From Chitinophagales bacterium (GTDB lineage: Bacteria > Bacteroidota > Bacteroidia > Chitinophagales > LD1), in the NCBI GenBank assembly GCA_044226285.1, contig JBGAHI010000004.1:154731-218730 (forward strand): a stretch of DNA of 64,000 nucleotides, read 5' to 3'. Both the position numbers and the translations under genes were made by a program. The notes below the pieces were generated by a model, which made no database searches, had not been told where the DNA came from, and worked only from the letters and a program-made list of their open reading frames with translations. This document shows positions 42,977-64,000 of the stretch, piece after piece. Each line of letters starts with the position of its first letter. Position 1 is the first letter of the stretch.

Positions 42977-43075
42977 GGTGGTAGGCTTTGTTTGTTTTGA
43001 CACAAGAACTATTCCAGTTTTTTGTAGATTACTTATCATTTATGCGGAAATCGTTTACTTGCAAGATAATCATGC

Positions 43076-48818: not shown

Positions 48819-49253
48819 TTGCAGATAAAAAAGCCAAGATATAAACGAGAAATAAATGAGGTGTTAGAGAGAAAGCCAATCAAAGTTGTGAAACCCGGTA
48901 GCAGTAACACTAGAGAGTATATGCAGGAGGTATGGATATACAGGCATTTGATTGTAGTGTTTGCCAAACAGGAATTTAAATTGCAATTTGTGTAGACAAA
49001 ACTGAACCTCTTTTGGTTGGCACTTCGCCCACTTATGGTTTTAGCGCTGTTCTCTTTTATTTTTGATCTTGTAATTCGTTTTCCAGGGTTAGAACACCCT
49101 TATCCGCTATTTGCATTTTCTAGACTAATCATTTGGAACAATTTTAGTTTCATGTTCAATAGCGTAGGGTCAGTGTTGATTACCAATCATCCTTTGATTA
49201 AAAAGGTGTTTTTCCCACATGTTATTATTATATTCGCAAAATTGCTGAATTAG
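48819..49253 (+). pseudogene. Disrupted and truncated ABC-2 (Wzm-type) permease gene
   Basis: The frame reads ...REYMQEVWIYRHLIVVFAKQEFKLQFV*TKLNLFWLALRPLMVLALFSFIF...FFPHVIIIFAKLLN*. An in-frame TAG at 48993-48995 sits in the position of the conserved Y-K-Q-T block. The ORF ends after roughly 140 aa, against 278 aa in the intact paralogue immediately downstream, which it aligns to. Confidence 0.65.
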
Positions 49254-49411
49254 CTACTATTTATGTCGTTCGTTTTTATATGAAAAAGAAGACTGGGAAA
49301 CCAAGCGGTCATGGTATGAAAAACAATTTGCTTGGGACTATTATGAATGTGATGAAGTTGGTATAAGGCAACTGTTTTTCTTTCCTTTCTTTTAAAAGTA
49401 TTTTTTTGTCT

Positions 49412-50248
49412 ATGAATGAGGAGTCGAACCATCCAAAACCAGTTCAAATAATAACAGCTGATCCATTCACTTTAGCACAATATTGGAAGCTAATGAAAAA
49501 GCATCGTAGTTTGATTTGGGTATTTGCACTGCAAGAAATCAGAACTATGTATGCGCAAACATACTTAGGCATCGTTTGGGCTGTGGTTCGTCCGTTGGTT
49601 TCGCTTATAATTTTCACGATTATTTTTAGTTACTTTCTAAAGGTGAAAACAGCTACACCCTATTATCTGTTCGCTTTTACAGGGATGATTGCATGGAATC
49701 TGTTCTCTCAATTAACTACTCAAGCTTCTTCGGCCATACTTCAAAAACAATATCTTATACGAAAACTATTTTTCCCAAAAATGGTGCTTTTTCTTTCAAA
49801 AGTCATCATTGTTTTAATAGAATTTGGGGTATCGCTCTCCCTTTTACTGGTATTTCTACTTTTTGACAATGTGCCATTTGGTATACATCTCTTGGCTTTA
49901 CCTGCATTTTTATTGTTAGACATTATTTTAGGTTTAACTATTGCATTGTGGATGAGCTCATTTACCATTCGTTTTAGAGATTTAAACCAACTATTACCCA
50001 CTATTATTGGAATTGGTATTTGGGTAACGCCAGTGTTCTTTCCGTCAACAATTATTCCGGAGAAATACAACTTCTTTGTATTCGCTAATCCCATGGGAGG
50101 GATAATAAAGGGTTTCCGATATGCACTTTTAGGCGAACCATTCCCGGAACTTGCCTATTGGTGGGCAATTCTTGTTGTTATTGTGTTGTTTTTTGTAGGT
50201 GTTTGGTATTTTATCCAAAAAGAAGACAATATCGTTGACTATGTATAG
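49412..50248 (+). CDS. ABC-2 type transporter permease (Wzm/TagG/KpsM-like polysaccharide exporter subunit)
   Basis: LIWVFALQEIRTMYAQTYLGIVWAVVRPL is the typical ABC-2 N-terminal block, and there are 6 TM helices. The ATG at 49412 is preferred over the TTG at 49406. No ATPase gene is adjacent. Confidence 0.8.
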   Translation: MNEESNHPKPVQIITADPFTLAQYWKLMKKHRSLIWVFALQEIRTMYAQTYLGIVWAVVRPLVSLIIFTIIFSYFLKVKTATPYYLFAFTGMIAWNLFSQLTTQASSAILQKQYLIRKLFFPKMVLFLSKVIIVLIEFGVSLSLLLVFLLFDNVPFGIHLLALPAFLLLDIILGLTIALWMSSFTIRFRDLNQLLPTIIGIGIWVTPVFFPSTIIPEKYNFFVFANPMGGIIKGFRYALLGEPFPELAYWWAILVVIVLFFVGVWYFIQKEDNIVDYV

Positions 50249-50311
50249 TTTTTGTATTACTCAGAATCATTTACCGGTAAGCTTAATGGCTAGAAACAAT
50301 GTCTCAATCCT

Positions 50312-51193
50312 ATGCAAGTAGAATACCAAATCGGAGATCAAACTATCTTCCTAAACCTAAAAGGTGAGGTAGTACAAGGTGAAGAAAAAACTCTTCTTCA
50401 GGATGACGATAATTTATTGGCACATACCCCATCGGGAGAAACCGGATTTATTGTCGCTCCTTTTTTAACTGCTAAAGAGTTTGATAGTATTTATTCGGGA
50501 ATAACGTCAATGGTAAAGGCTTTGATTCGAAAAGTAAAAGGGGAAATAGATGATGATTTTTGTCTTGAACATTATCACCACTATGTAACAGATAGTGAAC
50601 ACTTACAAATAGCAAAACTAATACAGTATGGATGGAATGTAAGTGAATTCCCTATCGATTTTAGAAAAGTGGAGGAGCGAATTTCTACCATTATTGGAAT
50701 TGATGTTACCGCTGAGGCTCACCACTTAAACCCTGAATCGTTTATATCAGGATTATATGCGAACGACAAAAAAGTACAAATCTTTAACTTAAGGATAGTG
50801 AGACCCCAAAAACTACTCGACAGTAATCCGCCACACCGAGATGTATGGATTGATCGATTGAGAAATGCTATAAATATTTATTGCCCTATTTGTGGAAGCA
50901 CAGCTAAGAGTTCGCTTCCGCTCATTCCTTATAGTCATCATTTCAAAGAATCGGAAATCGAAAGAACTTCTAATGGAGCAACCCTAAACGGCACAAGTTA
51001 TTCTGTTCCATGTGTTACACTTTTACAAGGTAAGCCGCCACATCTAATACGACCTAATCCAAAACAAAATGAACTATTACTTTTTTCTCCATATCTAATT
51101 CATGGAGGTGGTTATAACTTTGAGGAAGAAGTAACCAGAGTTTCGCTTGAGATTAGGTTTTGGCGTTCGCCTGATATCTTACAACCCAAGTGA
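50312..51193 (+). CDS. Fe(II)/2-oxoglutarate oxygenase, PhyH-like
   Basis: H-x-D in PPHRDVW, SLPLIPYSHHF (like the vipGSH block), a distal His in YLIHGGGYN and Arg in RVSLEIRF. Confidence 0.6.
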   Translation: MQVEYQIGDQTIFLNLKGEVVQGEEKTLLQDDDNLLAHTPSGETGFIVAPFLTAKEFDSIYSGITSMVKALIRKVKGEIDDDFCLEHYHHYVTDSEHLQIAKLIQYGWNVSEFPIDFRKVEERISTIIGIDVTAEAHHLNPESFISGLYANDKKVQIFNLRIVRPQKLLDSNPPHRDVWIDRLRNAINIYCPICGSTAKSSLPLIPYSHHFKESEIERTSNGATLNGTSYSVPCVTLLQGKPPHLIRPNPKQNELLLFSPYLIHGGGYNFEEEVTRVSLEIRFWRSPDILQPK

Positions 51194-52126
51194 CGCACGC
51201 ACCTTATATCGGCCTTGATGCAGTAGTTTTCGTTGTGCTTTAAACAAAGAAAAATACAGGTACCCATAGATTACCAATACTACCAATACACTAAAGTTTA
51301 CCATTGCCAAAAAAAAATTGGTGTAGCAGCTGGAAGTATAATTCACAATATTTATAACTGCGCCAGTAAAGAGTATGAACAGCATAGAAGACGGAAGTAC
51401 AAATTGCCTTACTTTTTTTGACGAATATGTATATATCAGTTTTAATGCCCAAAGCCCTTGAATAATTAGTTGATGACCGGAAACCCCTGCATATCGGCTA
51501 TTGTGGGAAACAGAAACCCAATCTGTAGTATTAGCATGTGCATGTGCAATTCCGTCAATAAACACAATAGGGGGAAGAGATGAAGAAGTGTTGAATAACG
51601 CTCTTTTAAAAAGTCGAAATGGACTTCCCTGCATTGATGTTCCTAGGCATAAATGAAAGGCATGAAGTGCCATCCGACTGGCTACATTTCGCCAAAAGGA
51701 ATGCTTTCGGAGGACCGGGGTACCATAAATAATATCAGCATCTTGGAATTGTTGTTTCTCGATAAGCTTAGGGATATCTGAAGGAGAAAACTGAAGATCG
51801 TCATCTAATGTAATTATGAACTCCCCTTGTGCATGTTGAATACCACAAAAAATGGCAGTATGTTGACCTACGTTTGTTTGAAGCCGAACTGCTTTTATGT
51901 TTCCAATAGTTTTTGAAATGGTTTGAATATTCTCCCATGTATTGTCTGGGCTAGCATCGTCAACGATTATGATTTCAAAAGAATTTGTTGTCCGTGAAAG
52001 AACATCATAGACTTGTTGGTAGATACTATTCACAACGCATCCACTTTTGTATGCAGGTATAATTACAGAATATCCAATTATAGAATGGTGAAGCATTGTG
52101 TTAAAACACTTGATTTTATATAGCAA
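51179..52126 (-). CDS. GT2 polyprenyl-phosphate glycosyltransferase (ArnC/GtrB/DPM1-like)
   Basis: YSVIIPAYK...EIIIVDDASPDNT...ITLDDDLQ followed by two C-terminal TM helices, the architecture of undecaprenyl-phosphate sugar transferases. An alternative start (MLHHSII) lies at 52096. Confidence 0.75.
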   Translation of the reverse strand: MLYKIKCFNTMLHHSIIGYSVIIPAYKSGCVVNSIYQQVYDVLSRTTNSFEIIIVDDASPDNTWENIQTISKTIGNIKAVRLQTNVGQHTAIFCGIQHAQGEFIITLDDDLQFSPSDIPKLIEKQQFQDADIIYGTPVLRKHSFWRNVASRMALHAFHLCLGTSMQGSPFRLFKRALFNTSSSLPPIVFIDGIAHAHANTTDWVSVSHNSRYAGVSGHQLIIQGLWALKLIYTYSSKKVRQFVLPSSMLFILFTGAVINIVNYTSSCYTNFFLAMVNFSVLVVLVIYGYLYFSLFKAQRKLLHQGRYKVRASLGL

Positions 52127-52285
52127 AGAATATTTTAGCAGAGTATGCTTTGATAACCATTTAAGATAATAACATCAAGTAATCCTATCCGTATTTACAT
52201 ATCTTTAAGTTTAAAAAGCGAGACGTCACCCTGTCAACTATTTTTATTACCACATTTTCTTTACTTTTATCAAAAGTACATTTAA

Positions 52286-52996
52286 ATGATAATCTTCTCA
52301 ACTTTTGAAAGTAATTACTTTAAGTTAAACGTAGGAAGAGCTGTTTGTGATGCGCCAACCGATGTACTTGACATCATAAAAGAAGCTAAGAAAAAACAGT
52401 TTAATATCGTGCGTATCGAGTCGAAGTATAAAATCGATATGGAAGAATTATTCTACATCAGAACAATTAACGACTACAAACACAGTTACAAAACATCCGA
52501 TAATCCAATTGGACTGAATGTTAGAAAAATTCAAACAGAAGAAGATGCTATTTTTTTTGAAAAGGAGCTATACAACAATTATTTAGGCGATAGTTTAGGT
52601 TACATTAATCACCCTTCAGTGAGAGCCAAATATCCTTATTTAAACAAAGAATTAGAAGCTAAATGTTATGCCTCTTTCTTTCGAACCAACTTTACGCCCT
52701 CTAATGACAACAAAGGCACACTTCTCTTTTCACAAAATGAAGACTGTGTTGGCGGGTATATCTACGAAATTGTTGGCGATGGTGTTTATACTTCTGTTGC
52801 TTTTGTATTAGAAAAGTATAGAAAATCCGGCTTTTTTAAACAGTTTCATTTATACAGAGAAAACCTCTTTTTCGGAATGGGTATAAAGTACGGCTTTCAC
52901 GGTGGAAGAAGCGACAATATTTCTGTGAACAACTTTTATCTAGAAGAAGGCTATGAAATTATTGAACAAAGGCATATCTATGTTATGGCTCTCTAA
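52286..52996 (+). CDS. GNAT-like N-acetyltransferase (WecD/TDP-fucosamine acetyltransferase-like)
   Basis: The N-terminal FESNYFKLNVGR resembles the WecD W-x-x-x-FF-G-x-N start. The C-terminal half has a GNAT-like VAFVLEKYRKSGFFKQF block. The assignment is tentative. Confidence 0.45.
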   Translation: MIIFSTFESNYFKLNVGRAVCDAPTDVLDIIKEAKKKQFNIVRIESKYKIDMEELFYIRTINDYKHSYKTSDNPIGLNVRKIQTEEDAIFFEKELYNNYLGDSLGYINHPSVRAKYPYLNKELEAKCYASFFRTNFTPSNDNKGTLLFSQNEDCVGGYIYEIVGDGVYTSVAFVLEKYRKSGFFKQFHLYRENLFFGMGIKYGFHGGRSDNISVNNFYLEEGYEIIEQRHIYVMAL

Positions 52997-53082
52997 AAAA
53001 AATGGCATAAGATTACTATTAACGCTATTATTGATAAACAACATAACTTAGCGCTATTTAGCATAACTAAATTTCAAATGAA

Positions 53083-53814
53083 ATGAATCCAAAAGAACCT
53101 TTTTTTTACATTACAAAAAAGTGGTATACCGGCTCTGCACCTGCATTTTACAACAATAGTGAATTCCCTTTGACTAAACTCTTGGAGGATAATGCATCGA
53201 TAATCATTGAAGAGATTACACATTTTTACCAGACAAAACCTGAGCAATTAACTACTAATTTTGTACCCTACAATGTAGATGTAAAAGGATGGGATACGAT
53301 GGTATTATACTCGTCAGGCATTCTAAATAAACATTTTTTGCCTTTTTTACCAAAGACATGGGCACTAATAAAAGATTACCCTGGCTTGAGTTTGGCAATG
53401 GTATCTGTTCTTAAACCTGGGGTCAGGCTTAAGGCTCATTTTGGAGATACAGATGCGATGGTTCGAAATCATTTGGGTGTTGTAATTCCAGAACCTTACC
53501 CTAAAGTTGGAATGCGCATAAAAGCAGAGGAAAGGGCATGGGAAGTGGGTAAAGTATTGTCTTTTTGTGTTGTTAATAGGCATTACGCATGGAATTACTC
53601 TGATAAACCTCGTTTAATCTTAATGGTAGACTTTATTAAACCAGAGTTCCTTCACCGTAAAAAAGAAATAGAGGGGAAAATATTAGCTGCCGAAGGCATG
53701 AAACTTTTCGCCACCAAATTTCCCATAACAAAAAAGCTACCAAGATGGGTAACCATGTTTCTTTTGAATGTATTGGGGGTAGTCGCAAATTGGTATGTGA
53801 AGTTTTTTAAGTAA
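53083..53814 (+). CDS. Aspartyl/asparaginyl beta-hydroxylase family Fe(II)/2OG oxygenase (LpxO-like) with C-terminal TM helix
   Basis: LKPGVRLKAHFGDTDAMVRNHLGVVIPE matches the H.G...R.HL.L..P core of PF05118. The C-terminal hydrophobic segment is WVTMFLLNVLGVVANWYV. Confidence 0.7.
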   Translation: MNPKEPFFYITKKWYTGSAPAFYNNSEFPLTKLLEDNASIIIEEITHFYQTKPEQLTTNFVPYNVDVKGWDTMVLYSSGILNKHFLPFLPKTWALIKDYPGLSLAMVSVLKPGVRLKAHFGDTDAMVRNHLGVVIPEPYPKVGMRIKAEERAWEVGKVLSFCVVNRHYAWNYSDKPRLILMVDFIKPEFLHRKKEIEGKILAAEGMKLFATKFPITKKLPRWVTMFLLNVLGVVANWYVKFFK

Positions 53815-53818
53815 TATG

Positions 53819-55792
53819 TTATTTTGACTCCTTCGACACCATTATAAACCTGCCAAGTGTATCGAAATGGGTATAAGTATCGGCTAGATATGGTGGGATA
53901 CAGTAGTCCTTATACAAAGTATCGAGCAATAAATAATTAGGCTGTAGTTTTTGTATCATAGTAAGTACAACCTCCTTTTCGTTTTGCGCATTTTGAAAGC
54001 TATTGTAAAGATTACTTCGCTTAAAAAAAGTAAGACGAGGCAAGTCGCCATTTCCTGAAAAAGTATCCAAAGGAATCGTATTTAACCGATGAAATTCTGC
54101 GCCTGTTAGATAAGCTCTTAAATACGGTAGATGAGCCATAAAAATAGACTCTTGATACTTAAACTTGCAACTATCCGAAACCACAATACCAATATCGACT
54201 ATGTCGTTCTTTGATAACAATTGACGCCACTTTATAGCCTCCCCTTTACTCACTTGACTGCGATTTTTCCACTCGTCATCATAGCCTAAACTAAACCGCA
54301 TAAACCCCTTAATCCCATCATTATTGTTAACTTGTAAATACCTCTCGTATATTGCAACTATACTCATACCTACCAAAAATAATGCTCCGTAACGCATGAA
54401 AGATTTCTTGTTAAAAGCAGTAATAAAAAGACCTACGGAGCCAATAGGGGCTAAAAATGCAATCAAATAAATGGCCCAAATCTGCCTGCTATCTCCGCCT
54501 AAATGTGAATAAACAAGAGAGAAAACCAAAATTGCACTACACAATAATGCTAATTGTATACACACAAAAAAAGGAGACAACGAGTCTTTCTTCCAGCCAT
54601 AAAGACCGTATAAAAAAGGGATAAAAAACACTAAGGATGCAGTAGTGAGCAATATCTGTCGCACAACAATCTGCATAAAGGAGTAAGAAAATAAACTATT
54701 AGAAACTATTGCGTAGTTCCGTCCGTCTATTTGACTGTATATATATGGACTAATCGAAAAAAACAATGCGAAAAGCAACTGGGGGTACGTTAGTGGAATA
54801 TAAATAACTAACCCTCTCTTATTACTGGTAATAATTTTGATTCCGATAAGCCCTATCATCATAATGGGCATTATTAATGCAACAGACGGATGCCACACAG
54901 AAACCAATCCCAAGCCTACTAAACCGATAAAGTACAGCTCATTCAAAATGATGATATAGAAAAGTAACACGGAAACGGCTAATACTAAAAAAGTCGGGCA
55001 GTTAAAAAGAGTATCCTCTACACAAGCAGATTCCATTTTTCCGATACTGCTAAAGGCGGGTATAAACTGAAGACCTGCATACATAAAAACAAATACAGCT
55101 AAAGAAAATACCAAACCCGTTCGAGCGCCTAAAGTTGTTGTCGACATGACGCCTATCAATAAAAAAACAAATAATTGATGAAAAATAACTTTATAGACAA
55201 TCACATAGCTGTAATAGGGCATGACCCCAAAATAATAGCTATATAACCCGGCAAACCAAGCATCTGCAAAATGATGAAACCCTCTATTTTGGTCATTTTG
55301 AAACATAAATCGAGAAGTTTCTGCTATCCCTCTTTTATAAAACTCATATCCAAAACCTCCAGAGTTGGCATAATCCCAATTTCCGACTCTTATATTGTTT
55401 CCAACACGCAAATCTGCCCAGTTCATCTCAAACACTAATAAGGCTAATGATAAACCTATCGCTACTACCCATTGCATGGTAGGAATAGCTTTAATATCAC
55501 TCCATATTCCCTTTGGTTTTAACTGCCATAAGAAGGGTAAGAAAAACACAAAAGGAAGCAACATGGTATGCAACCCTGCATGAAAAATAGCCACAAGAGC
55601 AGTGCCTACTATGGCTCCCATAGCCATACGAGCACTCACATTACCCCAAGGTGTAGAAAGGCGGGGCGTAAAGAAAGAGCCTAGAAGATAAATGAAAGGA
55701 AAACTAAAAAATACAGCTAAAAAAATAGTAGGTTGAAAAGGCGAAAATAGGTCTTTCATAGGAGCAAAAATAACAGAGATAATCAAAATCAT
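53819..55792 (-). CDS. Large polytopic membrane protein with a C-terminal soluble domain (GT-C-like architecture; function unknown)
   Basis: Roughly 12-14 predicted TM helices over ~480 aa, then a ~170-aa hydrophilic domain. I recognise no catalytic motif. An alternative start (MKDLFSPF) lies at 55759. Confidence 0.5.
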   Translation of the reverse strand: MILIISVIFAPMKDLFSPFQPTIFLAVFFSFPFIYLLGSFFTPRLSTPWGNVSARMAMGAIVGTALVAIFHAGLHTMLLPFVFFLPFLWQLKPKGIWSDIKAIPTMQWVVAIGLSLALLVFEMNWADLRVGNNIRVGNWDYANSGGFGYEFYKRGIAETSRFMFQNDQNRGFHHFADAWFAGLYSYYFGVMPYYSYVIVYKVIFHQLFVFLLIGVMSTTTLGARTGLVFSLAVFVFMYAGLQFIPAFSSIGKMESACVEDTLFNCPTFLVLAVSVLLFYIIILNELYFIGLVGLGLVSVWHPSVALIMPIMMIGLIGIKIITSNKRGLVIYIPLTYPQLLFALFFSISPYIYSQIDGRNYAIVSNSLFSYSFMQIVVRQILLTTASLVFFIPFLYGLYGWKKDSLSPFFVCIQLALLCSAILVFSLVYSHLGGDSRQIWAIYLIAFLAPIGSVGLFITAFNKKSFMRYGALFLVGMSIVAIYERYLQVNNNDGIKGFMRFSLGYDDEWKNRSQVSKGEAIKWRQLLSKNDIVDIGIVVSDSCKFKYQESIFMAHLPYLRAYLTGAEFHRLNTIPLDTFSGNGDLPRLTFFKRSNLYNSFQNAQNEKEVVLTMIQKLQPNYLLLDTLYKDYCIPPYLADTYTHFDTLGRFIMVSKESK

Positions 55793-56035
55793 GCTTACTT
55801 CTGCTTTTTTGTTCAGCTGCTTGGCTTAAAAAAATGTTGCTAATAACTATTGTTTACGGGTTACAGAAGTTGCAATTTGAAACTTGCTATTACTTGTAAA
55901 AAAATGATAATTTGCAACGCTATGGAACTAAATATTGGCATAAGTTAAGCCGGCTTTTTACTAGCTGCATAGCCTAGTGTTTTTAATTTAAAAACTAGCA
56001 CAAATAGCATTGCATATCAGTTAAATGAACTAATT

Positions 56036-57106
56036 ATGAATAACCCTATTAAAAAGTCAAAAACAATACTGCTCGTATTTTTTTCAATATTGCTTGTAGT
56101 ATTTCTGACTGGAGAGATAGGGTTACGGCTAAAGGGATTTAAAATGATGAGACTCACCACCCAACCCAGAAGCCTCTTAACTGCTGATTCTGTTTCTGGA
56201 TGGAAACTAACTGAAGGAACATACACTATATGTTTTAATGACTCCAATTCTTTTTTTGTTGCCACTGTAAATCAAAAAGGGGATCGAATAACTTCTATGA
56301 ATGCGCAAAGCTATGATACGGGCAAAGTAACTACTATACAAATTTACGGTTGTTCTTGCACTTTTGGATTCTCGGTACCAGATAGTTCTACGCAAAGTTT
56401 TATATTACAAAGTAAACTTCCTAATTGTCGGATCCAAAATAAAGGAGTACCTGGATATGGACTTGCGCAAATGTTTTTGCATTTACAACAAGTGGTATCT
56501 AGCGGTGACACTCCTCAAGTAGCCGTTTTTAATTACGCAAATTTTCAAGAAAGACGAACGGCTCTTAGTACTGAATGGGGCAGTGTTATTTCCCTTTTAG
56601 TTGAAGCTGAACCGTCCGATAAAAAAGGCGCCAACAAATCAGGTAGACTTACGCTACCATACTATGATATAAAGCAAGATTCGCTTTGGTTACACTACTC
56701 TGATTTTAGTGAGTTAGAGCATCTTTGTCCGCTCGTAAATTACTCCTCTTTACTATTGCTTTCAAACATACAATATGTACAATATAAAGACCAAGAAAAA
56801 ACAAACGCTTTTCATGAAACAGCAACTAAAACAGCTTTTGAAATCATGAAGTATTGTAAAAGCCATAGAATTACACCAATTTTTGCAAGCTTAACAGAAT
56901 CAGAAGACAGTTCACAAATAGATGATATTTCATTAAAACTCAAGCAATCAGGGTATTTAACGCTTAATTACGGCATTACTTTTGATGACAATAGATATAA
57001 TAAACCATTATCAAGAGATAAATCACATCCTAATTCAACAGCACACGCAGTTTATGCCGATAAACTATACGCTTACCTAATGGAAAAAAAATTAATCCTT
57101 AAATAA
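56036..57106 (+). CDS. Membrane-anchored SGNH/GDSL-type hydrolase or acyltransferase
   Basis: N-terminal TM helix, block I-like IYGCSCTFG, and block V-like DKSHPNSTAH (D-x-x-H). Confidence 0.5.
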   Translation: MNNPIKKSKTILLVFFSILLVVFLTGEIGLRLKGFKMMRLTTQPRSLLTADSVSGWKLTEGTYTICFNDSNSFFVATVNQKGDRITSMNAQSYDTGKVTTIQIYGCSCTFGFSVPDSSTQSFILQSKLPNCRIQNKGVPGYGLAQMFLHLQQVVSSGDTPQVAVFNYANFQERRTALSTEWGSVISLLVEAEPSDKKGANKSGRLTLPYYDIKQDSLWLHYSDFSELEHLCPLVNYSSLLLLSNIQYVQYKDQEKTNAFHETATKTAFEIMKYCKSHRITPIFASLTESEDSSQIDDISLKLKQSGYLTLNYGITFDDNRYNKPLSRDKSHPNSTAHAVYADKLYAYLMEKKLILK

Positions 57107-57159
57107 CACGCACATTTTTTTTGAAAAGATTTTGTTTTAAAAAAAATCCATGTTTACAA

Positions 57160-59601
57160 ATGACCACATTAGCTATTCTTAAAAAAAAAATGGTCCTACA
57201 TATAAAAAAAATGTGGTGGCTATTTACTTTTTTATGCGTTTGGGTGTGTATAGCTTCTTACCCTACTCAGCTAACGCATAAAGTTAACATAAATCAATCC
57301 GATGCTTTAGAATACCAGGTTTGTGCATACAACTTAGTGAAGTATGGAGTATTCCCAAAACTTAAAGTACATGGTCAACTTTCTGACTATGCTATTGATA
57401 GCAATACCAATATGCCACTTAGTAGCAGAATCTTTACAGCGCTTATTTTAAAACACCCCCCAATAGATGATTTTTCAAAACCCCCTCTCTATTCCTTGCT
57501 ACTTGCATTGGTCTACTTTCTAGCAGGCACAAATTTTAACAATGCCGTTTTTTTCCAACTGATTTTAGTATCGCTTACTACCGCATTACAACCATATCTA
57601 GGTTGGCGCTTAATGGGAAAAAAGGGCGTTGTTATAGGAATCATTTCTGCTTACTTTTATTTTCAAAGTTCCATAGACGAAATCCATCTCCTCTACCCCC
57701 ACTTTTTAGTGCAACTTATTTTATTAGTAGTTATTATAATTAACGAAAACCAACACCCCAAAAGATGGCAAATACTACTTACTGGATTTCTCTTAGGATG
57801 CTGTGTACTAACCAATGGAAATACGATTTTTATTCCATTCATGTATTTTTTATATCAATTGCTCCTTTACATTAAAAAGAAGATTTCAGGTGAATTTTTC
57901 CAGGGGTGGTTTGTTTTTTTATGTGTATTAGCGCCCTGGGTAGTTTTCGCCAATTTAGAATTATCAAAAACGAAAAATGAGCGAACGATTTGGAAACAGA
58001 ATCTGTGGAAGGGTGTAACTATTGAAAAATATAACACTACCTTTTTACTTGATAAAAGCCACCCCACCTTACAAGACAGTATTATTATTTTGAATTGTGT
58101 AAGAAACTTGTACAGTAAATTTGGAGAAGATGGATTTGTACTTATTTCAAAACAACCTTTTGGCGATGAAATATTAGGCACCCACAATGAATTTTGTGAA
58201 GATGGAAGATACCACCCTGAATGGAGATTCTTATCCAACTCCTACCACAACCGTCAAAACACAGGTCGTTCTACTCTCGTAAAAATTATTCTATTTTATA
58301 AGGACAACCCCTCTTTTATTTTAAAAAACATAACCGGTAAATTTTCAGGGACTACCAGTGGGTATTCCTTCTTATATTATCTTTCGGGGATATTTCTCTT
58401 ACTAATTCCCCTTTACAACAAGCTTCAAAAGTATTCCTTTTTGGGAGTAGCAGCAGTTATTTTGAGCGCTTATTTTTTATTGCCTTTTGAGTATTATATC
58501 GTTCTTTTTTTAGTAGGAATAGTAGCAGGGAATCTCTTTGTTTTTAGTGGAAAATACGAAATGGATATATCTCCTATCTGGATTTTTGCAATTACTAATA
58601 CTGTGTTTATTACTATATTTTTTTTGGGGGAAGCAAGATATGTAGCCATTCTAAATCAATTTATACTTATTATTTTGTTTGCATTAACTGCAATTTTTAT
58701 AAAACCTTTTTTTGTGCATGATTTTAGTTTTTATAAAACCAAAGGGGCTTTGCTTTATAAAAAATACATTCCGAAATTTAGGCTTTTTGAAGTAGTACTT
58801 ATGTCGGGTTATTTTATAGTAGCCTTTGCATTTGCGAATGATGCAATTGTAGTATCTAAAGTACTTACATCCATGGTTTATTACTTTGCAATCTTGTGCT
58901 ATATCGCATCGGTATACATGTTAAATTCATTTGCTGATTATGATTTAGATAAAGTTAATCCTCGCTTACAATATTTGAGCAGCTTTAAAAAAACGAGTTA
59001 TTTGTTGTGGACAGTTATTTTCTTATTACTGAGCTTATGTATTACTTTTTTCCTTAACAGAAAAATTGCCGTTTTTTTTTCCTTTTCGTACCTCTTATGG
59101 TATTTGTATTATTGCCCCCCTTTCCGGTATAAAAACTCGATATTAATTGGAACAGTTATCCATTTTGTTTCGGGCATATTACATTTTCAAATCGGATTTG
59201 AAGTTGCACAAACCGCAGGCTATTTATCCTTTATGATTTCTTTGTTTTTTGCGACACTACTCAGTATGGGGCATTTAAACCACGAGCTGCTCGATTTAGA
59301 TGCAGACCAAAAGTTTGGCATTAAAAACACTGCCATTACCTTTGGCAGAAAAAATGTTATTTGCCTCTTCTACGCACTATTTTTTCTTTCGCAAATATAC
59401 CTGTTGCTTATGTTCAAATGGAAATTTATTGACAAGTATGAACTAATACCGTTTCTTTATTTGCCGGTTATTGCTACCCTTTTTGTTGTGGGGGAAAAGC
59501 AAAAGCTCTTGCAACCGAAATACATTCAAAAATTATTCAGAATACTTTTGCTCATCAGTTCGATAGTACTCATCGCGCTAAAACTTATTGCTGTTCAATA
59601 G
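57160..59601 (+). CDS. Fusion protein: ArnT/PMT_2-type GT-C glycosyltransferase domain plus C-terminal UbiA-family prenyl/phosphoribosyl transferase domain
   Basis: The N-terminal part has the first-loop acidic motif DALEYQVCAYNLVKYG and SKPPLYSLLLALVYFLAG (the KPPL block of the ArnT family). The C-terminal part has NSFADYDLD (NxxxDxxxD) and LDLDADQKFGIKNTAITFG (second Asp-rich UbiA motif). The start is ambiguous: TTG 57121, or ATG at 57160, 57190 or 57211. Confidence 0.7.
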   Translation: MTTLAILKKKMVLHIKKMWWLFTFLCVWVCIASYPTQLTHKVNINQSDALEYQVCAYNLVKYGVFPKLKVHGQLSDYAIDSNTNMPLSSRIFTALILKHPPIDDFSKPPLYSLLLALVYFLAGTNFNNAVFFQLILVSLTTALQPYLGWRLMGKKGVVIGIISAYFYFQSSIDEIHLLYPHFLVQLILLVVIIINENQHPKRWQILLTGFLLGCCVLTNGNTIFIPFMYFLYQLLLYIKKKISGEFFQGWFVFLCVLAPWVVFANLELSKTKNERTIWKQNLWKGVTIEKYNTTFLLDKSHPTLQDSIIILNCVRNLYSKFGEDGFVLISKQPFGDEILGTHNEFCEDGRYHPEWRFLSNSYHNRQNTGRSTLVKIILFYKDNPSFILKNITGKFSGTTSGYSFLYYLSGIFLLLIPLYNKLQKYSFLGVAAVILSAYFLLPFEYYIVLFLVGIVAGNLFVFSGKYEMDISPIWIFAITNTVFITIFFLGEARYVAILNQFILIILFALTAIFIKPFFVHDFSFYKTKGALLYKKYIPKFRLFEVVLMSGYFIVAFAFANDAIVVSKVLTSMVYYFAILCYIASVYMLNSFADYDLDKVNPRLQYLSSFKKTSYLLWTVIFLLLSLCITFFLNRKIAVFFSFSYLLWYLYYCPPFRYKNSILIGTVIHFVSGILHFQIGFEVAQTAGYLSFMISLFFATLLSMGHLNHELLDLDADQKFGIKNTAITFGRKNVICLFYALFFLSQIYLLLMFKWKFIDKYELIPFLYLPVIATLFVVGEKQKLLQPKYIQKLFRILLLISSIVLIALKLIAVQ

Positions 59602-60433
59602 GTTTTGTACACTGCAAAACGCAGTAATCAATAATCCCTTTTTCGACAAGTAATTTTAACGACACACAGGCCTTATAATGATTATACAACAGTTCACTAT
59701 CTTCTTTTTTGATTTGTTCCATTTTCGTTAATGCACCATAATATGATTTTTCGATACCGGGCATAACAAAATTGAGAATGGAGGTTACTTCGATATTATC
59801 GAATCCTGCTTTTAATAATCTCTTCGCAGGCAGATCGATATAATGATTGACCGCCCATCCTTGCTGAAAAGCATTAAGGGCTGACATTGTTTCGGCATCC
59901 GTAGGTTTCAAAACTTCTATATAATCGATTATGAGCAACTTCCCTCCTGGTTTTAACACTCTAAACATTTCGACAAGAAATTGTTCCTTCGATTCAGAGT
60001 GACACATACTCTCAATCGCATAGGCAACATCTACACTATTGCTTTCCAGCGAAGTATTGGTATAGTCTTCTTCTAAAAAAACAATGTTGTTCAGCGGTTT
60101 TGCTTTTTGTTGTGCAAATGCAATTTGACTTCGAGAAATATTGATTCCGATGAGATGATGTTGTGGAAATTGTTCTTTCAAAAAGAACAAAGTTCCACCT
60201 ATTCCGCAACCTGCATCTACTACAGTTTGTGCATCGCTATTCCCTAAGCTCAATTGTGCGGCAATAAAGCTGTTCATTCTTAGCTTTGCTTGGTCATTAT
60301 CTTCAACTGAATCACTAAAATAACCCATGTGCATAGCTAAAGAATTAGGATTGTGTCCTTGCATAAATCGTTCTAGCCAGCATACATCATAATAGTCTAG
60401 AATTTGTTGTGTATATTTTTCTGCTTTGTTCAT
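59585..60433 (-). CDS. Class I SAM-dependent methyltransferase
   Basis: Motif I VVDAGCGIGGT and post-I/II blocks LIGINIS and LKPGGKLLIIDY. The YYD...W...F N-terminal block is as in lipid and sterol-type methyltransferases. It lies 6 nt downstream of the radical SAM gene. Confidence 0.8.
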   Translation of the reverse strand: MNKAEKYTQQILDYYDVCWLERFMQGHNPNSLAMHMGYFSDSVEDNDQAKLRMNSFIAAQLSLGNSDAQTVVDAGCGIGGTLFFLKEQFPQHHLIGINISRSQIAFAQQKAKPLNNIVFLEEDYTNTSLESNSVDVAYAIESMCHSESKEQFLVEMFRVLKPGGKLLIIDYIEVLKPTDAETMSALNAFQQGWAVNHYIDLPAKRLLKAGFDNIEVTSILNFVMPGIEKSYYGALTKMEQIKKEDSELLYNHYKACVSLKLLVEKGIIDYCVLQCTKPIEQQ

Positions 60434-60439
60434 TTTCGG

Positions 60440-62029
60440 TTATGATATTGCTGTTTGCTTTGTTGCCGTAAGCGTTAGCGAAATAATTTTTTCCTTATTC
60501 TTAACTGGATCATATTCACTTTTCAGCTTCTGCATAAAAGTAAAATTATCGCTTCCCTGTTTTATTTTCTTCGGTTTAAAGAAACGAAGAAGTTTTTCGG
60601 AATAAAACCCAAGAATTCCTATTCCTCCAATAAAGTTGAGTTTTACTTCGTGAAAACTTCGTGTATTGTATAATCGCTTAAGAATATATGTCGGGCGTAG
60701 ATAAAATGAAAATGTCATTTTTCTGTAGAGTTTTTCAACATCTTCAGTGCTTAAGCTATCAATATTAATAATAGGTGTTGATCCATAGTATTTATCCCAA
60801 TCATAGGTCAAAATTTTGTCTTCTCTAATGGTCTTATTGAATACATCATTCCCCGGGAAAGGTGTAAGTATCGAAACAGAGATGAGATCAGGATCGAGTT
60901 TTTTCAATAAGCGAATATTATCATTTACAACTTCATGCGTATCGCCTTCGTTGCCAACAATCATACATACCCTCGACTCGAGTTTTGCTTTTTTTGTCCA
61001 AAGCATTGCATTAAATACCTTCTCCACCTCAACTCCTTTTTGAATATTATCGAGAATTTTCTGGTCGAAATTTTCAACCCCATACATGATTCCCCAACAC
61101 CCTGCTTTCTTCATTAATAAAAGCATTTCTTCATCCACAATATCCACCCGTGCAAAACATTGCCATTGAACGTCTAATGGTTTTTCAATCAGCAAATTGC
61201 AAAAATCGGTAACCCGTTGTTTACTCACAGTAAACACATCATCCATTATGGCCACGTCTTTAACACCGTATTTTTCGTTTAAATATTTGAATTCGTTGTA
61301 TAAACTTTCTGCACTTCGATATGTCCACATTTTCCCAACTGTACGTCTACAAAAGCTGCACGACCAAGGGCATCCTCGACTTGTAACAATCATCATAGCC
61401 GGCAAACGTTTAAAATTTCCAATAATTGGGCGATAGGAATTTATATCAATCAAATCATAGGCCGGCATAGGTAGATCGTCTAGCGCTTTATTTCGAGAAC
61501 GCGACTTGTTTCGAATAAATTCTACAACACCATTGGTATTCTTCTTATATGCTAGTCCATTGATATTCTCGAAGGGTTGTCCCTGAAGAAGTTCAAGCAA
61601 AGTATCTTCCCCCTCTCCGATTGCCACACAATCAACCGATTCATTACTAAGTGCTTCATCGGGCACAAATGAAGCATGTGAACCCCCTAAAACAAAAACT
61701 GTATCAGGATAATAGAATTTACAGAGGGCAGCCAATCGATACGACACATTTATTGTTGGGGTAGTTGTAGTTACGCCAATCACTTTTATTGAACTAAATT
61801 TTTCAACGTAATTTTTTATAAACCAAAGCTCAAACTCTAAATCGGTATCTTTAAAATAATAATTGCAATCCACTATTTGAACGGAAAAATGGTGTTCCCT
61901 AACATATGCGGCTAATGCTGTTAACCCCAATGGGACATCTATCGTTCTTTGTCCATAGTAAATACCTTTAGGAAAAAAGAATGGTGGGTTAATCAACAAA
62001 CAATCCAATATGATTTTATCATTTTCCAT
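60440..62029 (-). CDS. B12-binding-domain radical SAM protein (class B, COG1032-type)
   Basis: CxxxCxxC cluster in SRGCPWSCSFCRR. The N-terminal ~150 aa has a Rossmann-like cobalamin-binding-domain pattern (VIGVTTTTP...VLGGSHAS). Confidence 0.8.
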   Translation of the reverse strand: MENDKIILDCLLINPPFFFPKGIYYGQRTIDVPLGLTALAAYVREHHFSVQIVDCNYYFKDTDLEFELWFIKNYVEKFSSIKVIGVTTTTPTINVSYRLAALCKFYYPDTVFVLGGSHASFVPDEALSNESVDCVAIGEGEDTLLELLQGQPFENINGLAYKKNTNGVVEFIRNKSRSRNKALDDLPMPAYDLIDINSYRPIIGNFKRLPAMMIVTSRGCPWSCSFCRRTVGKMWTYRSAESLYNEFKYLNEKYGVKDVAIMDDVFTVSKQRVTDFCNLLIEKPLDVQWQCFARVDIVDEEMLLLMKKAGCWGIMYGVENFDQKILDNIQKGVEVEKVFNAMLWTKKAKLESRVCMIVGNEGDTHEVVNDNIRLLKKLDPDLISVSILTPFPGNDVFNKTIREDKILTYDWDKYYGSTPIINIDSLSTEDVEKLYRKMTFSFYLRPTYILKRLYNTRSFHEVKLNFIGGIGILGFYSEKLLRFFKPKKIKQGSDNFTFMQKLKSEYDPVKNKEKIISLTLTATKQTAIS

Positions 62030-62222
62030 AGCTCAACATTTTAAAAATACCCATTCCAGTAGAAAAATCTTTAACCCCCTTTAATGTAATTTATCATTAC
62101 TGTTTGCTAACGCAATGTTTTTGCGCCTACAAACATTATAATCAAGCATTTGTCCCAAATATGAATTATTGTATTCACTTTATCAAACTTTTTCTTGATT
62201 TTTGCAGTGTTTACAAACACAA

Positions 62223-63098
62223 ATGAAATCAAGGGTATTTATTGACGGCTTGTTGGAAAACAAGTTACAAAAAAACGGTTTTGTTAAAATTCCTTTTTGG
62301 TCAGAAGACATTGTTGAGAAAGTACGCAATACCTTTGAGTCCGAATTCTATGAAAAGCATTCCTCCTCTAAAAAATTTAACACCACCTACGAGACGGTAA
62401 ACCTAACTTTAATTGACCGCGTTAAAGCTTATTTAGAACCTCTTTTTATAGAAAACGCAAAAAAATTATTTGCGGATATGCGACCTATTAGTGCCAGCTT
62501 TTTGGTAAAGGAGCCCGGAGTTAACTCGGAATCACCTCTCCATCAAGATGCTAGTTTTGTGGATGAACCCGAGCACTGTTCTGTATCGGTATGGGTAGCC
62601 CTTCAAGATTGCAATGCACAAAACAGTTGCTTACAGTTTATACCGGGTAGTCATAAATTATTTACGGGCATTCGATTTATTCCATATACGAATCAAACCG
62701 TTGATGAGCATAAACATCGACTAATGCCATACCTTACTCAACACACGATTAAGGCAGGAGAGGCATTTGTGTTCTACAACGCAACGTTACATGCTTCGGG
62801 AAATAATCTAAGCGATACTCCACGATTAGCGGCAGTTATGGGTTTTTACAGCGCAAGTACACTATTGAGCCTATACAAAAAGAACGAATCCAACAACCAA
62901 ATCGACAGATTTAGCATATCAGTTGAACAATTGAAACAAATCAACGATGTTTTTCTTCCAAGTGAGGAACAACGTATAGAGTCGTTAGCTTTACCTTTGA
63001 ATATAACATCGAAGGAGGTAAGCCGTTTTCTAAAAGAAGAATTCAGCTTACCGAAACGAATTTTAGCTTGGGCAAACAAATATATAAACCCTAATTAA
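62223..63098 (+). CDS. Phytanoyl-CoA dioxygenase (PhyH) family Fe(II)/2OG oxygenase
   Basis: SPLHQDASFVD (HxD), VWVALQD, LQFIPGSHK, and a distal His in ATLHASGNN. The ATG at 62223 is preferred over the TTG at 62202. Confidence 0.75.
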   Translation: MKSRVFIDGLLENKLQKNGFVKIPFWSEDIVEKVRNTFESEFYEKHSSSKKFNTTYETVNLTLIDRVKAYLEPLFIENAKKLFADMRPISASFLVKEPGVNSESPLHQDASFVDEPEHCSVSVWVALQDCNAQNSCLQFIPGSHKLFTGIRFIPYTNQTVDEHKHRLMPYLTQHTIKAGEAFVFYNATLHASGNNLSDTPRLAAVMGFYSASTLLSLYKKNESNNQIDRFSISVEQLKQINDVFLPSEEQRIESLALPLNITSKEVSRFLKEEFSLPKRILAWANKYINPN

Positions 63099-63146
63099 TG
63101 CTATATTAGTAAGCCGATTACCGGACAAAAACTTTTATGTTTTAAG

Positions 63147-64000
63147 ATGAATGGAACAAAACACATAGCACAAGTTGGCATCGAAAAACTCGGGTTTTAT
63201 TTGTTTGATTTTTTATCGGAAAGCAACATTCAGGCACTAGGTGAACTTTATTATGCTTGTTATGGTAACGACCCGTCAAACGGAATGGTCGTTTCGCATA
63301 ATCACGGAGATGCAGCATTTAATATATCCGTTAGCCATAAAATAAATGCAATTCTTGGAAAATCTATTGAATCCCAATTCCCGGATTACCGTTTTTTTCT
63401 TTCGCATTTTGCAGTTAAAAAGGCAGGAAATGAAAACAGTTTTGAACTACATCAAGACTGGTCAATTGTTGATGAATCGCAATTTAATAGCTATCAAATT
63501 TGGATTCCGTTAAAATTGAGCTATCCTGAAAATGGAGGCATGTGTTTCATACCACGAAGCCAACACTTCAATACTAATATACGATCCGGTAGTTTCGGCA
63601 TTCCGGCAATCCCTATTACTTCTGCTGTATATCCGTATCTCTCTTATGCAAGAATATTTCCCGGACAAGCTGTAGCCTTTTCGAACAACCTCCTTCATGG
63701 ATCGTTTTCAAACCCAACCGATGAAGATAGAATATCGGTTATTGTTAACATAGTTCCTAAAATGGCTGATACAACTTATTTCCATTTTAATAATAACACA
63801 CGACAAACAGAAGTTTATTCGATAGATGCAGAAACTTTGCTAACTCATTTGCCTCGTCTTGAAAAAGGAGAAATGCCCTTAAACTATGCACCTAAAGCTA
63901 TTATTGATGCTCCTAAACAAAACAATAAAGCCATTAGTTTTTCGGATGTTTTAGATTGGATAAAAACAGACAGACATGAGCTAGGATTGAAGGATAACTA
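63147..64000 (+). CDS. PhyH-like Fe(II)/2OG oxygenase; the 3' end lies beyond the window
   Basis: Hand translation from the ATG at 63147 gives MNGTKHIAQVGIEKLGFYLF...ELHQDWSIVDE (HxD)...IWIPLK...MCFIPRSQH...LLHGSFSN. The frame is open to the window edge, so it is not in the ORF track. Confidence 0.65.
   Translation, partial: MNGTKHIAQVGIEKLGFYLFDFLSESNIQALGELYYACYGNDPSNGMVVSHNHGDAAFNISVSHKINAILGKSIESQFPDYRFFLSHFAVKKAGNENSFELHQDWSIVDESQFNSYQIWIPLKLSYPENGGMCFIPRSQHFNTNIRSGSFGIPAIPITSAVYPYLSYARIFPGQAVAFSNNLLHGSFSNPTDEDRISVIVNIVPKMADTTYFHFNNNTRQTEVYSIDAETLLTHLPRLEKGEMPLNYAPKAIIDAPKQNNKAISFSDVLDWIKTDRHELGLKDN

Follow-up and report, generated by a model that had tools for sequence, protein, structure and literature searches.

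A rare GT-C–UbiA fusion gene set in a conserved array of Fe(II)/2-oxoglutarate oxygenases: a probable accessory envelope cluster of uncultured Bacteroidota

Pentofuranose glycosylation systems, which have been described in Wzm/Wzt O-antigen loci, consist of a UbiA-family PPPRS, a GT-C glycosyltransferase and, optionally, an epimerase of the short-chain dehydrogenase/reductase (SDR) family. In Citrobacter youngae O1/O2 these are ORF15, ORF12/GT136 and ORF13, respectively, accompanied by the MATE protein ORF14, and a related route is the mycobacterial decaprenylphosphoryl arabinose (DPA)/arabinan pathway with Rv3806c, DprE1/E2 and Emb/Aft (PMC11127046). This three-component pathway is the closest described logic to that of the gene cluster reported here, an accessory envelope cluster of an uncultured Bacteroidota lineage centred on a gene that fuses a GT-C-like to a UbiA-superfamily domain, which we analysed in a stretch of 64,000 nucleotides from a Chitinophagales bacterium (contig JBGAHI010000004.1, positions 154,731 to 218,730; hereafter the window). 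By analogy, the UbiA-superfamily and GT-C enzymes would here too work on the same polyprenyl-linked substrate from opposite faces of the membrane, and the two kinds of loci share an adjoining SDR gene (in relatives of our cluster) and a Wzm/Wzt-type exporter. Unlike in the pentofuranose system, a single protein of 800 aa contains both the UbiA and the GT-C part, the DPPRS/PPPRS model is not matched by the UbiA half, neither a phosphatase nor a MATE/SMR flippase is found among the genes called in the cluster, and the 9-13 Fe(II)/2-oxoglutarate (2OG) domains, the methyltransferase and the B12-binding radical S-adenosylmethionine (rSAM) enzyme have no counterpart there.

Other described systems resemble the cluster in part. 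Like the Gtr (GtrA/GtrB/GtrC) and Arn (ArnC/ArnEF/ArnT) systems, both the window and one related locus (L007) combine an ArnC/GtrB-like family 2 glycosyltransferase (GT2) that has C-terminal membrane helices with an ArnT/PMT_2-like GT-C domain, but this GT2 lies outside the conserved core, scores stay short of the ArnC and ArnT equivalog cutoffs, the GT-C domain shares its polypeptide with a prenyltransferase, and no small GtrA/ArnEF flippase was found among the open reading frames (ORFs) of the locus. Both transporter subunits are nearest to TarGH and Wzm-Wzt, which export polymers linked to undecaprenyl diphosphate (6jbh, 6m96, 6oih and 9qfx), and from which they differ in that the ATPase carries a C-terminal extension of ~160 aa without Wzt_C and that no polymer synthase genes lie alongside. 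Fungal meroterpenoid clusters of the 3,5-dimethylorsellinic acid (DMOA) type likewise combine a UbiA enzyme, a methyltransferase and paralogous PhyH oxygenases (there AusE, PrhA and TlxJ), but ours is a bacterial cluster that lacks a polyketide synthase, an epoxidase and a terpene cyclase and whose exporter and GT-C domain suggest a role at the envelope, for which the fungal clusters have no machinery. Lastly, an AspH-family gene nearest to OlsC/LpxO and an rSAM gene nearest to HpnJ recall LpxO/OlsC and the hopanoid enzymes HpnJ, HpnR and HpnP, with the differences that the scores are 4-10 times below the equivalog cutoffs, that the AspH gene is lineage-specific and that neither a squalene-hopene cyclase nor lipid A genes are found here.

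We conclude that this cluster probably directs the synthesis of a surface lipid or glycan that is heavily oxidised and methylated and has no described counterpart. A first-pass annotation of the window had proposed an accessory pathway on a polyprenyl carrier, leading to a hydroxylated and methylated glycolipid or envelope decoration, and could match it to no described pathway. That general idea holds, and we likewise found no description of such a cluster in the literature searched. The observation proved real and under-stated; its interpretation, right in spirit and partly supported by what follows, was anchored on a variable cassette of genes.

The GT-C–UbiA fusion and the extent of the cluster

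The whole cluster spans ~24 kb and is expected to run from about 49.4 to 72.5 kb in window coordinates. The window holds its left two-thirds, up to position 64000, and lacks ~9 kb to the right, which we found on a metagenome contig (L011) that overlaps window positions 59745-64000 at 99.88% identity and then runs on for 9 kb. This contig was recovered with the exact product of a 291-aa PhyH gene read from its ATG at 62223, while exact-product look-ups with the version of that protein starting at TTG, with the rSAM enzyme and with protein P0001 returned no record. The features of both parts are listed in Table 1. As the first-pass annotation had supposed, the region is richer in A and T than its surroundings, GC being 35.1% over 48517-64000 and 40.2% elsewhere in the window, a difference that is real but modest. 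Its left edge is marked by a frameshifted copy of the N-terminal ~135 aa of the neighbouring permease, which is not a gene: its two ORFs align locally to the permease with BLOSUM62 scores of 52 and 132 and have no Pfam match. This duplicate was probably left behind by recombination at this end of the island. Two convergent gene pairs overlap at their 3' ends, the fusion and methyltransferase genes by 17 nt (59585-59601) and the 50312 oxygenase and GT2 genes by 15 nt (51179-51193), and the former overlap recurs, at 4 nt, in the related loci L001 and L002. A scan of the locus for riboswitches or other RNAs gave nothing at the Rfam gathering score, and the intergenic gaps hold no conserved short ORF.

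The fusion gene (57121-59601, plus strand) encodes a protein of 826 aa, in which a UbiA-family domain had been noted. This assignment is borne out for the C-terminal half by a PF01040 match of 61.3 bits, against a gathering score of 34.2, over aa 568-768, and by the motifs N602, D606 and D610 (NxxxDxxxD) and D725 and D729 (DxxxD), which are invariant in seven of seven fusion proteins. In an AlphaFold2 (AF2) model computed from the seven-sequence alignment, in which this half has a predicted local distance difference test (pLDDT) score of 70-88, it is predicted to adopt the nine-helix UbiA fold, with Foldseek TM-scores of 0.70-0.74 to AfUbiA (4tq3/4tq4) and DGGGPS (6m31/7bpu). Among NCBIfam models, those for the archaeal-type prenyltransferase, ChlG/BchG, DGGGPS and MenA rank on top. 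This ranking favours enzymes that join a prenyl group to oxygen (archaeal prenyltransferase, ChlG and DGGGPS) over DPPRS, which uses phosphoribosyl pyrophosphate. The DPPRS model NF008978 scores 12.9 bits (E 0.038) against a cutoff of 207 bits and has no match in four orthologues, and the mycobacterial Rv3806c (8j8j) comes only 15th in the Foldseek ranking, after AfUbiA, DGGGPS, ApUbiA and UBIAD1, and was not recovered by sequence. These findings weigh against a ribofuranose-making enzyme, to which we return below.

The N-terminal domain (aa 1-545) had been called ArnT-like GT-C. It has no direct Pfam match at E values up to 10, PMT_2 included; its homologues, on the other hand, do match PMT_2, and the acidic loop motif is conserved. 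A phmmer search with the domain retrieved 295 homologues, mostly stand-alone proteins of 450-560 aa, and PMT_2 is matched by 25 of the 36 that we sampled, for example by P0013 (E 3e-43 to the N-domain) and P0024 (2e-32) with 43.7 and 47 bits, respectively, against a gathering score of 26.1. The domain shows D61-x-x-E64-Y65...N71 after the first transmembrane helix, K120-P-P-L-Y124, and a conserved loop of ~130 aa (HNE..DG..HPEW). We take DxxEY...N after the first transmembrane helix, together with (K/R)PPxY, to be the signature of ArnT/PMT-type GT-C enzymes. In the 36 homologues, N71 and P122 are found without exception, D61 in 32, E/D64 in 31, Y65 in 30, K/R120 in 34 and Y124 in 32, and the motifs are kept in all fusions as well; this conservation argues for a catalytic glycosyltransferase. 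In the AF2 model, most of aa 1-545 has pLDDT values below 50, and Foldseek returned no GT-C match on that poor model, a search that is uninformative for the N-domain because only the UbiA half of the model is usable. A profile of the 36 homologues had no match in the PDB, and a second profile search with the stand-alone GT-C homologues added almost no sequences. The indirect evidence for GT-C, which comes through the homologues and the conserved motifs, is good, and a GT-C fold is predicted from sequence. In a crude charge analysis of the fusion, the N-terminus and the linker (aa 530-552) are rich in K/R, which suggests a topology with the GT-C loop outward and the UbiA motifs inward.

The fusion is extremely rare. 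Its family comprises seven protein clusters among 5.8 billion proteins, all of ~800 aa and 36-43% identical, and five representatives among 1.84 billion proteins searched with phmmer. No relative was found in a scan of 185,579 species genomes of GTDB with the fusion alignment, and a scan of JGI metagenomes yielded one contig, L009, that was already known. When the species genomes were scanned with an alignment of the rSAM enzyme, the only match was a Desulfosarcina protein with 26% identity (L010). The lineage itself recurs in the environment, since the same organism, recognised by an identical AspH-like protein and the same order of the cassette, is found on at least 16 contigs (L012-L019 among them) from several independent metagenomes (JGI 3300010348, 3300009716 and 3300025678; DRR438526/8; SRR24001351; SRR28480388). 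The cluster is thus invisible to studies of cultured organisms because it is so rare, with no occurrence in the 185,579 species genomes. The literature that we searched has no account of a GT-C–UbiA fusion together with a PhyH array, enzyme families that are each known but rarely combined.

Table 1. Features of the cluster, in window coordinates or on the contig L011 that continues it
Feature	Position	Strand	Evidence
Decayed partial permease duplicate	48819..49253	+	Two short ORFs, corresponding to aa 10-49 and 60-134 of the permease
TarG/Wzm-type ABC-2 permease, conserved core	49406..50248	+	Pfam ABC2_membrane 2.8e-10
Distant PhyH-like Fe(II)/2OG oxygenase, H175-R-D...H264	50312..51193	+	TIGR04324 2.4e-6; no Pfam match
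GT2, polyprenyl-phosphate sugar synthase type (ArnC/GtrB/PgfS/PpgS-like)	51179..52126	-	Glycos_transf_2 4.7e-31, 108 bits
236-aa protein	52286..52996	+	No Pfam/NCBIfam match at E up to 10
AspH-family Fe(II)/2OG hydroxylase, hydrophobic C-terminus	53083..53814	+	Asp_Arg_Hydrox 2.9e-30, 105 bits
657-aa polytopic membrane protein, orphan	53819..55792	-	No family match
356-aa membrane-anchored protein, weakly SGNH/GDSL-like	56036..57106	+	NF047474 LA_2486-family SGNH 3.6e-9
Divergent ArnT/PMT_2-like GT-C domain (putative), aa 1-545 of fusion	57121..58755	+	Homologues and motifs
UbiA-superfamily prenyltransferase domain, C-terminal half of fusion	58756..59601	+	Pfam UbiA 1.1e-16
Class I SAM methyltransferase, core	59585..60433	-	Methyltransf_11/25/31 and CMAS matches
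Class B (B12-binding) radical SAM enzyme	60440..62029	-	PF02310 3e-16, PF04055 3e-17
PhyH Fe(II)/2OG oxygenase, 291 aa	62223..63098 (ATG; TTG alternative 62202)	+	PhyH 6.6e-24, 86 bits
Double-PhyH oxygenase, 555 aa	63147..64000, cut by window end	+	PhyH 1.5e-10, 42 bits
PhyH genes of 269, 273 and 277 aa	L011, after the 555-aa gene		Pfam/NCBIfam
TagH/Wzt-like ATPase, 413 aa	L011, 3.3 kb past window end		TagH model 173 bits
WelO5-family oxygenase, 283 aa	L011 8744-9595, ~4.5 kb past window end	-	123 bits
PhyH genes of 282 and 283 aa	L011, after the WelO5-family gene	-	Pfam/NCBIfam
Conserved membrane protein, 431 aa	L011, after the two minus-strand PhyH genes		Orthology

The conserved core: exporter and tailoring enzymes

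Related loci were found in four further lineages, all metagenomic (L001; L002/L003 with the P0004 contig; L004-L006; and L007-L009). Across the five lineages, the window included, the core is syntenic and its proteins are 36-71% identical, in the order permease, fusion, convergent methyltransferase, rSAM enzyme (in some), PhyH array, ATPase, two PhyH genes on the reverse strand and the 431-aa protein. Orthology is one-to-one for each PhyH paralogue and gene order is largely the same, a conservation that goes beyond chance. The co-occurrence of these genes, proposed earlier as a check on the pathway, is found in every related locus for the fusion, the methyltransferase, the PhyH genes and the permease, and in some only for the rSAM gene, which is present in the window and in two of the four related lineages. 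The outcome of this check supports the general idea of the first-pass annotation. In four of the five lineages an SDR gene, whose nearest model is the PRK06197 oxidoreductase, lies directly upstream of the fusion gene; the window lineage has none. We take PRK06197 to represent a retinol-dehydrogenase-like class. In none of the lineages does the conserved core hold a cytoplasmic Leloir glycosyltransferase, an initiating transferase or a nucleotide-sugar gene. The flanking genes differ among lineages, as expected for an accessory island. The L004 cluster abuts housekeeping genes on one side, and the edge of L007 carries a second, independent polyprenyl-phosphate sugar module with an ArnC-like GT2, a WecE-like transaminase and a PseH-like acetyltransferase.

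The first-pass annotation had named a Wzm-type permease, which the ABC2_membrane match upholds, and had remarked on the lack of a Wzt ATPase, a window-edge effect since the cluster continues past 64000 and the ATPase lies on L011. The permease is 50-55% identical to those of L002, L004 and L007, and its nearest PDB entries are TarG (6jbh, 3e-18), Wzm (6m96/6oih) and the mycobacterial galactan exporter (9qfx), with E values from 3e-18 to 1e-10. The ATPase is nearest to TarH (1e-44), TagH and Wzt, with E values from 1e-44 to 1e-37; DrrA-type models match it too. Its only Pfam matches are to ABC_tran/AAA families: the carbohydrate-binding domain at the C-terminus of Wzt (PF14524) was not detected, and its extension of ~160 aa has no Pfam assignment. 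The two genes thus encode an ABC-2 permease and a cognate ATPase of the TagH/Wzt class, which places them in the exporter class, and the nearest sequences to either subunit are those of transporters that export lipid-linked polymers.

The cluster is dominated by oxygenases. Each cluster has 9-13 PhyH domains, the relatives having at least 11 PhyH genes (13 domains in L002), and the cluster of the window organism encodes ~11 oxygenase catalytic domains, of which the earlier count of four was an undercount. Of the three PhyH-like oxygenases reported at first, the 62223 and 63147 products are confirmed by Pfam, and that of 50312, a member of the cassette described below, is a distant relative only. 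On L011, the 555-aa gene is followed by three PhyH genes, the ATPase gene, a WelO5-family gene, two further PhyH genes and the gene for the 431-aa protein. The 62223 gene is the first of the conserved right-arm array; its product has an HQD...H...R triad, is 39-55% identical to its orthologues and matches PHYHD1, EvdO2, SnoN/SnoK and MysH in the PDB, while the sole PDB match of the 63147 product is the meroterpenoid dioxygenase TlxJ, a weak one (E 0.07). Among 21 aligned PhyH paralogues, HxD...H and a distal Arg are conserved in 19, and the other two have HQN; these form an orthogroup (L002 2002-2925 and L004 17219-18145) that is kept in two lineages and absent from that of the window. For most PhyH paralogues the top NCBIfam model is TIGR04324, "sporadic carbohydrate cluster 2OG-Fe(II) oxygenase". 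No signal peptide was found in any of the oxygenases, and these soluble enzymes should therefore act in the cytoplasm. The WelO5 match raised the idea of a halogenase, which is ruled out by the triads, all HxD/E and none HxA/G. With H-C-E in place of HxG, the WelO5-family protein of L011 is probably a hydroxylase-type member; L007-L009 keep only a fragment of 129 aa.

Both the methyltransferase and the class B rSAM enzyme, which had been recognised at the outset, are supported by hidden Markov model (HMM) matches and, for the latter, by its CxxxCxxC motif (C220xxxC224xxC227, within an invariant GCPWSCSFC). The methyltransferase, convergent with the fusion gene, is 47-51% identical to its orthologues, which are found in all relatives; its nearest PDB entries are a phosphoethanolamine N-methyltransferase (5wp5, 6e-21), RebM (3bus), MitM and a glucose O-methyltransferase (6uv6). 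For the rSAM enzyme, the top NCBIfam model is HpnJ (TIGR03471) with 186.7 bits, well short of the 577.6-bit equivalog cutoff, followed by BchE, ApyD and PhpK, and in the PDB it matches AprD4 (2e-18) and TokK. It is the best-conserved protein of the cluster, with 70-71% identity in L004-L009 where other cluster proteins have 36-64%, and is absent from L001-L003. This O2-sensitive enzyme is encoded among ~10 O2-dependent oxygenases.

A 683-aa protein with a tail for the type IX secretion system (T9SS) is encoded between the PhyH genes and the SDR gene in L002/L003 (6956-9007) and on the P0004 contig. In L007 (1234-3039, minus strand), a 601-aa membrane protein with a lipase-maturation-factor (LMF1) domain is encoded among the PhyH genes and is unrelated to the 657-aa orphan of the window.

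A proposed pathway and its alternatives

Building on the family assignments and the co-conservation of the genes, we infer from sequence a substrate, an order of steps and a product, and we put the resulting pathway forward tentatively, giving it somewhat less than an even chance. In this pathway, the UbiA domain would make an envelope lipid linked to an isoprenoid or polyprenyl, cytoplasmic enzymes would oxidise and methylate it, the TarGH-like exporter would flip it and the GT-C domain would glycosylate it. 1) The cytoplasm-facing UbiA half would join an isoprenoid diphosphate to an oxygen nucleophile, giving a membrane-anchored isoprenoid lipid or a lipid-linked head group. 2) At the inner face, the oxygenases, the SDR, the methyltransferase and the rSAM enzyme would oxidise and methylate this lipid stepwise. 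3) The ABC exporter would flip the tailored lipid outward, where 4) the periplasm-facing GT-C half would glycosylate it, or pass it on, using a polyprenyl-phosphate sugar, which 5) in the window lineage could be supplied by the local ArnC/GtrB-like GT2. 6) The AspH/OlsC-like hydroxylase, the SGNH-like protein and the orphan membrane protein may add lineage-specific decorations. The predicted product is a polyhydroxylated, methylated surface glycolipid or glycoconjugate. A narrower version, in which it is an isoprenoid (ether) glycolipid with a chain or head group that the dedicated oxygenase array hydroxylates at up to a dozen positions and that is C- or O-methylated, that is, a bacterial polyol lipid without known analogue, seems to us doubtful as yet, if conceivable.

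Several findings point to the proposed pathway. The UbiA domain, the TarGH/Wzm-Wzt-type exporter and the GT-C domain each belong to a class that handles polyprenyl- or isoprenoid-linked substrates, a module for making a polyprenyl-phosphate sugar is found at the cluster in two lineages (the GT2 of the window and the set of L007), and hints of a lipid substrate come from the OlsC/LpxO-like AspH gene, the HpnJ-like rSAM enzyme, the CMAS match of the methyltransferase and the PRK06197-like SDR. Other findings weigh against it. None of the enzymes has a characterised close relative, their scores on the functional family models all fall far short of the cutoffs, and the GT-C fold comes from sequence only, with pLDDT below 50. 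Several soluble enzymes are more like sugar enzymes (EvdO2, SnoN/SnoK, TIGR04324, RebM, glucose O-methyltransferase and AprD4) than like enzymes of lipids, in three of the five lineages no GT2 is seen less than 10 kb from the fusion gene, the pathway gives no reason for 9-13 separate oxygenases, and O2-dependent oxygenases share one cluster with the O2-sensitive rSAM enzyme.

The first alternative is a fused pentofuranose glycosylation system, which we regard as unlikely. The UbiA half would then be a polyprenyl-phosphate phosphoribosyltransferase and make polyprenyl-phosphate-ribofuranose, the GT-C half would transfer or polymerise a modified pentofuranose in the periplasm, the SDR and some of the oxygenases would epimerise or oxidise the sugar, and the ABC transporter would take the place of a MATE/SMR flippase. 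Fusion of the UbiA and GT-C parts, the SDR directly upstream in four of five lineages and an exporter of the Wzm/Wzt/galactan type all suit a system of the kind outlined in the opening paragraph, SnoN, which is among the PDB matches, is a PhyH-family sugar epimerase, and the core of such a system needs no GT2, which fits its absence from three lineages. Against this stand the poor scores of the DPPRS model and of Rv3806c with the UbiA half, the lack of any HAD/PAP2 phosphatase or MATE/SMR flippase among the called genes of the window, L011 and L001-L009, the window lineage having no SDR, and the 9-13 oxygenases, too many for one pentose.

We think it less likely still that the genes form a cluster for a specialised metabolite of meroterpenoid type, in which UbiA would prenylate a small acceptor, to be tailored oxidatively by the PhyH array, the SDR, the methyltransferase and the rSAM enzyme as in fungal DMOA-derived pathways and exported free by the ABC-2 pump, the GT-C-like half being structural or regulatory. 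The only paper that we found to name both a phytanoyl-CoA dioxygenase and a UbiA prenyltransferase concerns a fungal meroterpenoid cluster (PMC5989830), TlxJ is the single, weak PDB match of the 63147 oxygenase, numerous oxygenase paralogues, each of them conserved, are typical of a scaffold that is tailored step by step, and the ATPase matches DrrA-type models. Genes that would supply an aromatic or polyketide acceptor are lacking, however, as are those for an epoxidase and a terpene cyclase, the exporter is nearer to TarGH/Wzm-Wzt than to drug pumps, the GT-C motifs are kept throughout the 36 homologues and the fusions, and genes of envelope type (a GT2, an OlsC-like hydroxylase and a sugar transaminase) lie at the cluster in two lineages.

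Lower again we place an ordinary O-antigen or capsule locus that depends on an ABC transporter and has its backbone genes elsewhere, so that the oxygenases, the methyltransferase and the rSAM enzyme would decorate a conventional polysaccharide linked to undecaprenyl diphosphate before it is exported. The class of the exporter (Wzm/Wzt/TagGH) and the top rank of TIGR04324 for most PhyH paralogues agree with this, the methyltransferase could be the enzyme that caps and terminates the chain, and low GC with differing flanks fits a serotype-like island. A classical polysaccharide is unlikely because the core has none of the Leloir glycosyltransferases, initiating transferases or nucleotide-sugar genes that would build it, and on one side L004 ends directly on housekeeping genes. 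Parts of O-antigen loci are common, yet the fusion family occurs in 0 of 185,579 species genomes; the ATPase shows no Wzt-type carbohydrate-binding domain, and the literature searched held no O-antigen locus with a PhyH array.

Highly improbable, finally, is a modification system for peptides (RiPP-like, that is, for ribosomally synthesised and post-translationally modified peptides) or for T9SS cargo, in which the oxygenases would hydroxylate, the rSAM enzyme and methyltransferase methylate and the PMT_2-like domain O-glycosylate the substrate: protein O-mannosyltransferases are among the relatives of PMT_2, the clusters of L002/L003 and the P0004 contig include a T9SS-tailed protein and another adjoins the window locus, and ApyD-type and RiPP C-methyltransferase models match the rSAM enzyme, but the T9SS proteins of the window and L002 are unrelated, the gaps between the genes offer no conserved short ORF, and neither the UbiA domain nor the TarGH-type exporter would have a role.

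Should the proposed lipid pathway prove right, the fusion would be the first case found in which one polypeptide both makes a lipid-linked substrate and carries a GT-C enzyme that acts on the other face of the membrane, and the cluster would be the first pathway of the envelope in which a conserved array of ~10 2OG oxygenases predominates. The cluster offers a compact test bed for how GT-C enzymes are supplied with substrate, for what TarGH/Wzm-type transporters flip and for how paralogous oxygenases divide their work. A polyhydroxylated, methylated lipid or glycan would be new surface chemistry for Bacteroidota and could serve as a biomarker lipid.

The lineage-specific cassette and neighbouring genes

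Between the permease and the fusion gene, the window carries a cassette (50312-57106) that fills the place taken in relatives by four PhyH genes, the SDR gene and sometimes the T9SS protein. It is on these non-conserved genes that the Arn/Gtr-style frame of the first-pass annotation mainly rested: its GT2 and GT-C domain are present, the flippase of such systems is not. The GT2 itself, described there as ArnC/GtrB-like with C-terminal transmembrane helices, stands up well, with the Glycos_transf_2 match given in Table 1 and two C-terminal hydrophobic helices visible in the sequence. Its best NCBIfam model is ArnC, at 92 bits against a cutoff of 529, followed by PgfS and PpgS. Among relatives, only L007 has a counterpart, 32% identical and ~8 kb from the fusion gene, and none was found in L001-L006.

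The 50312 oxygenase has no counterpart in the related loci, and its relation to the PhyH array was detected by profile comparison (hhalign probability 89%, E 2.4e-6), in which the HRD...H triad is aligned. The assignment of the 53083 product as AspH/LpxO-like is sustained by Asp_Arg_Hydrox and by OlsC and then LpxO as top NCBIfam models, at 107 bits against a cutoff of 450 and 49 bits against 500, respectively, which are below equivalog level. The 356-aa protein, which occupies the position of the SDR in relatives and had been called an SGNH enzyme, has one weak NCBIfam match in favour (NF047474, 36 bits against a 300-bit cutoff, aa 15-163) and no Pfam match.

Two earlier assignments in the cassette found no support. 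The 236-aa protein, taken for a WecD-like acetyltransferase, has no HMM match even at E values up to 10, and its single-sequence AF2 model has pLDDT 32. The 657-aa protein, described as a second large polytopic protein with a periplasmic domain, is an orphan without detectable family: it has no Pfam match, and among 5.8e9 proteins it finds only its own 90% cluster. It was also considered as a GT-C relative and rejected, hhalign giving no profile relation to the GT-C family of the fusion; a GtrC-like role for it would be a guess.

Outside the cluster, the window has features of its own. On the minus strand, 3133-5772 encodes an 879-aa fusion of a MurF-like Mur ligase and a complete alanine racemase, and a Flavo-1 RNA motif (RF01705, 57 bits) lies at 6033-6116 on the plus strand, upstream of the MurF-Alr gene region. 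Four of the proteins encoded in the window carry sorting domains of the T9SS, and a GH92 and a sulfatase are encoded there as well; with the Flavo-1 motif, these features mark the window as Bacteroidota DNA. Giant T9SS cargo proteins of 1840 and 1270 aa, with CHU_C-associated Ig-like repeats, are encoded at 37517-43039 and 44704-48516, both on the minus strand, where local GC reaches 0.47-0.49, and a stretch of ~83 aa in the 1270-aa protein is duplicated in tandem almost without change.

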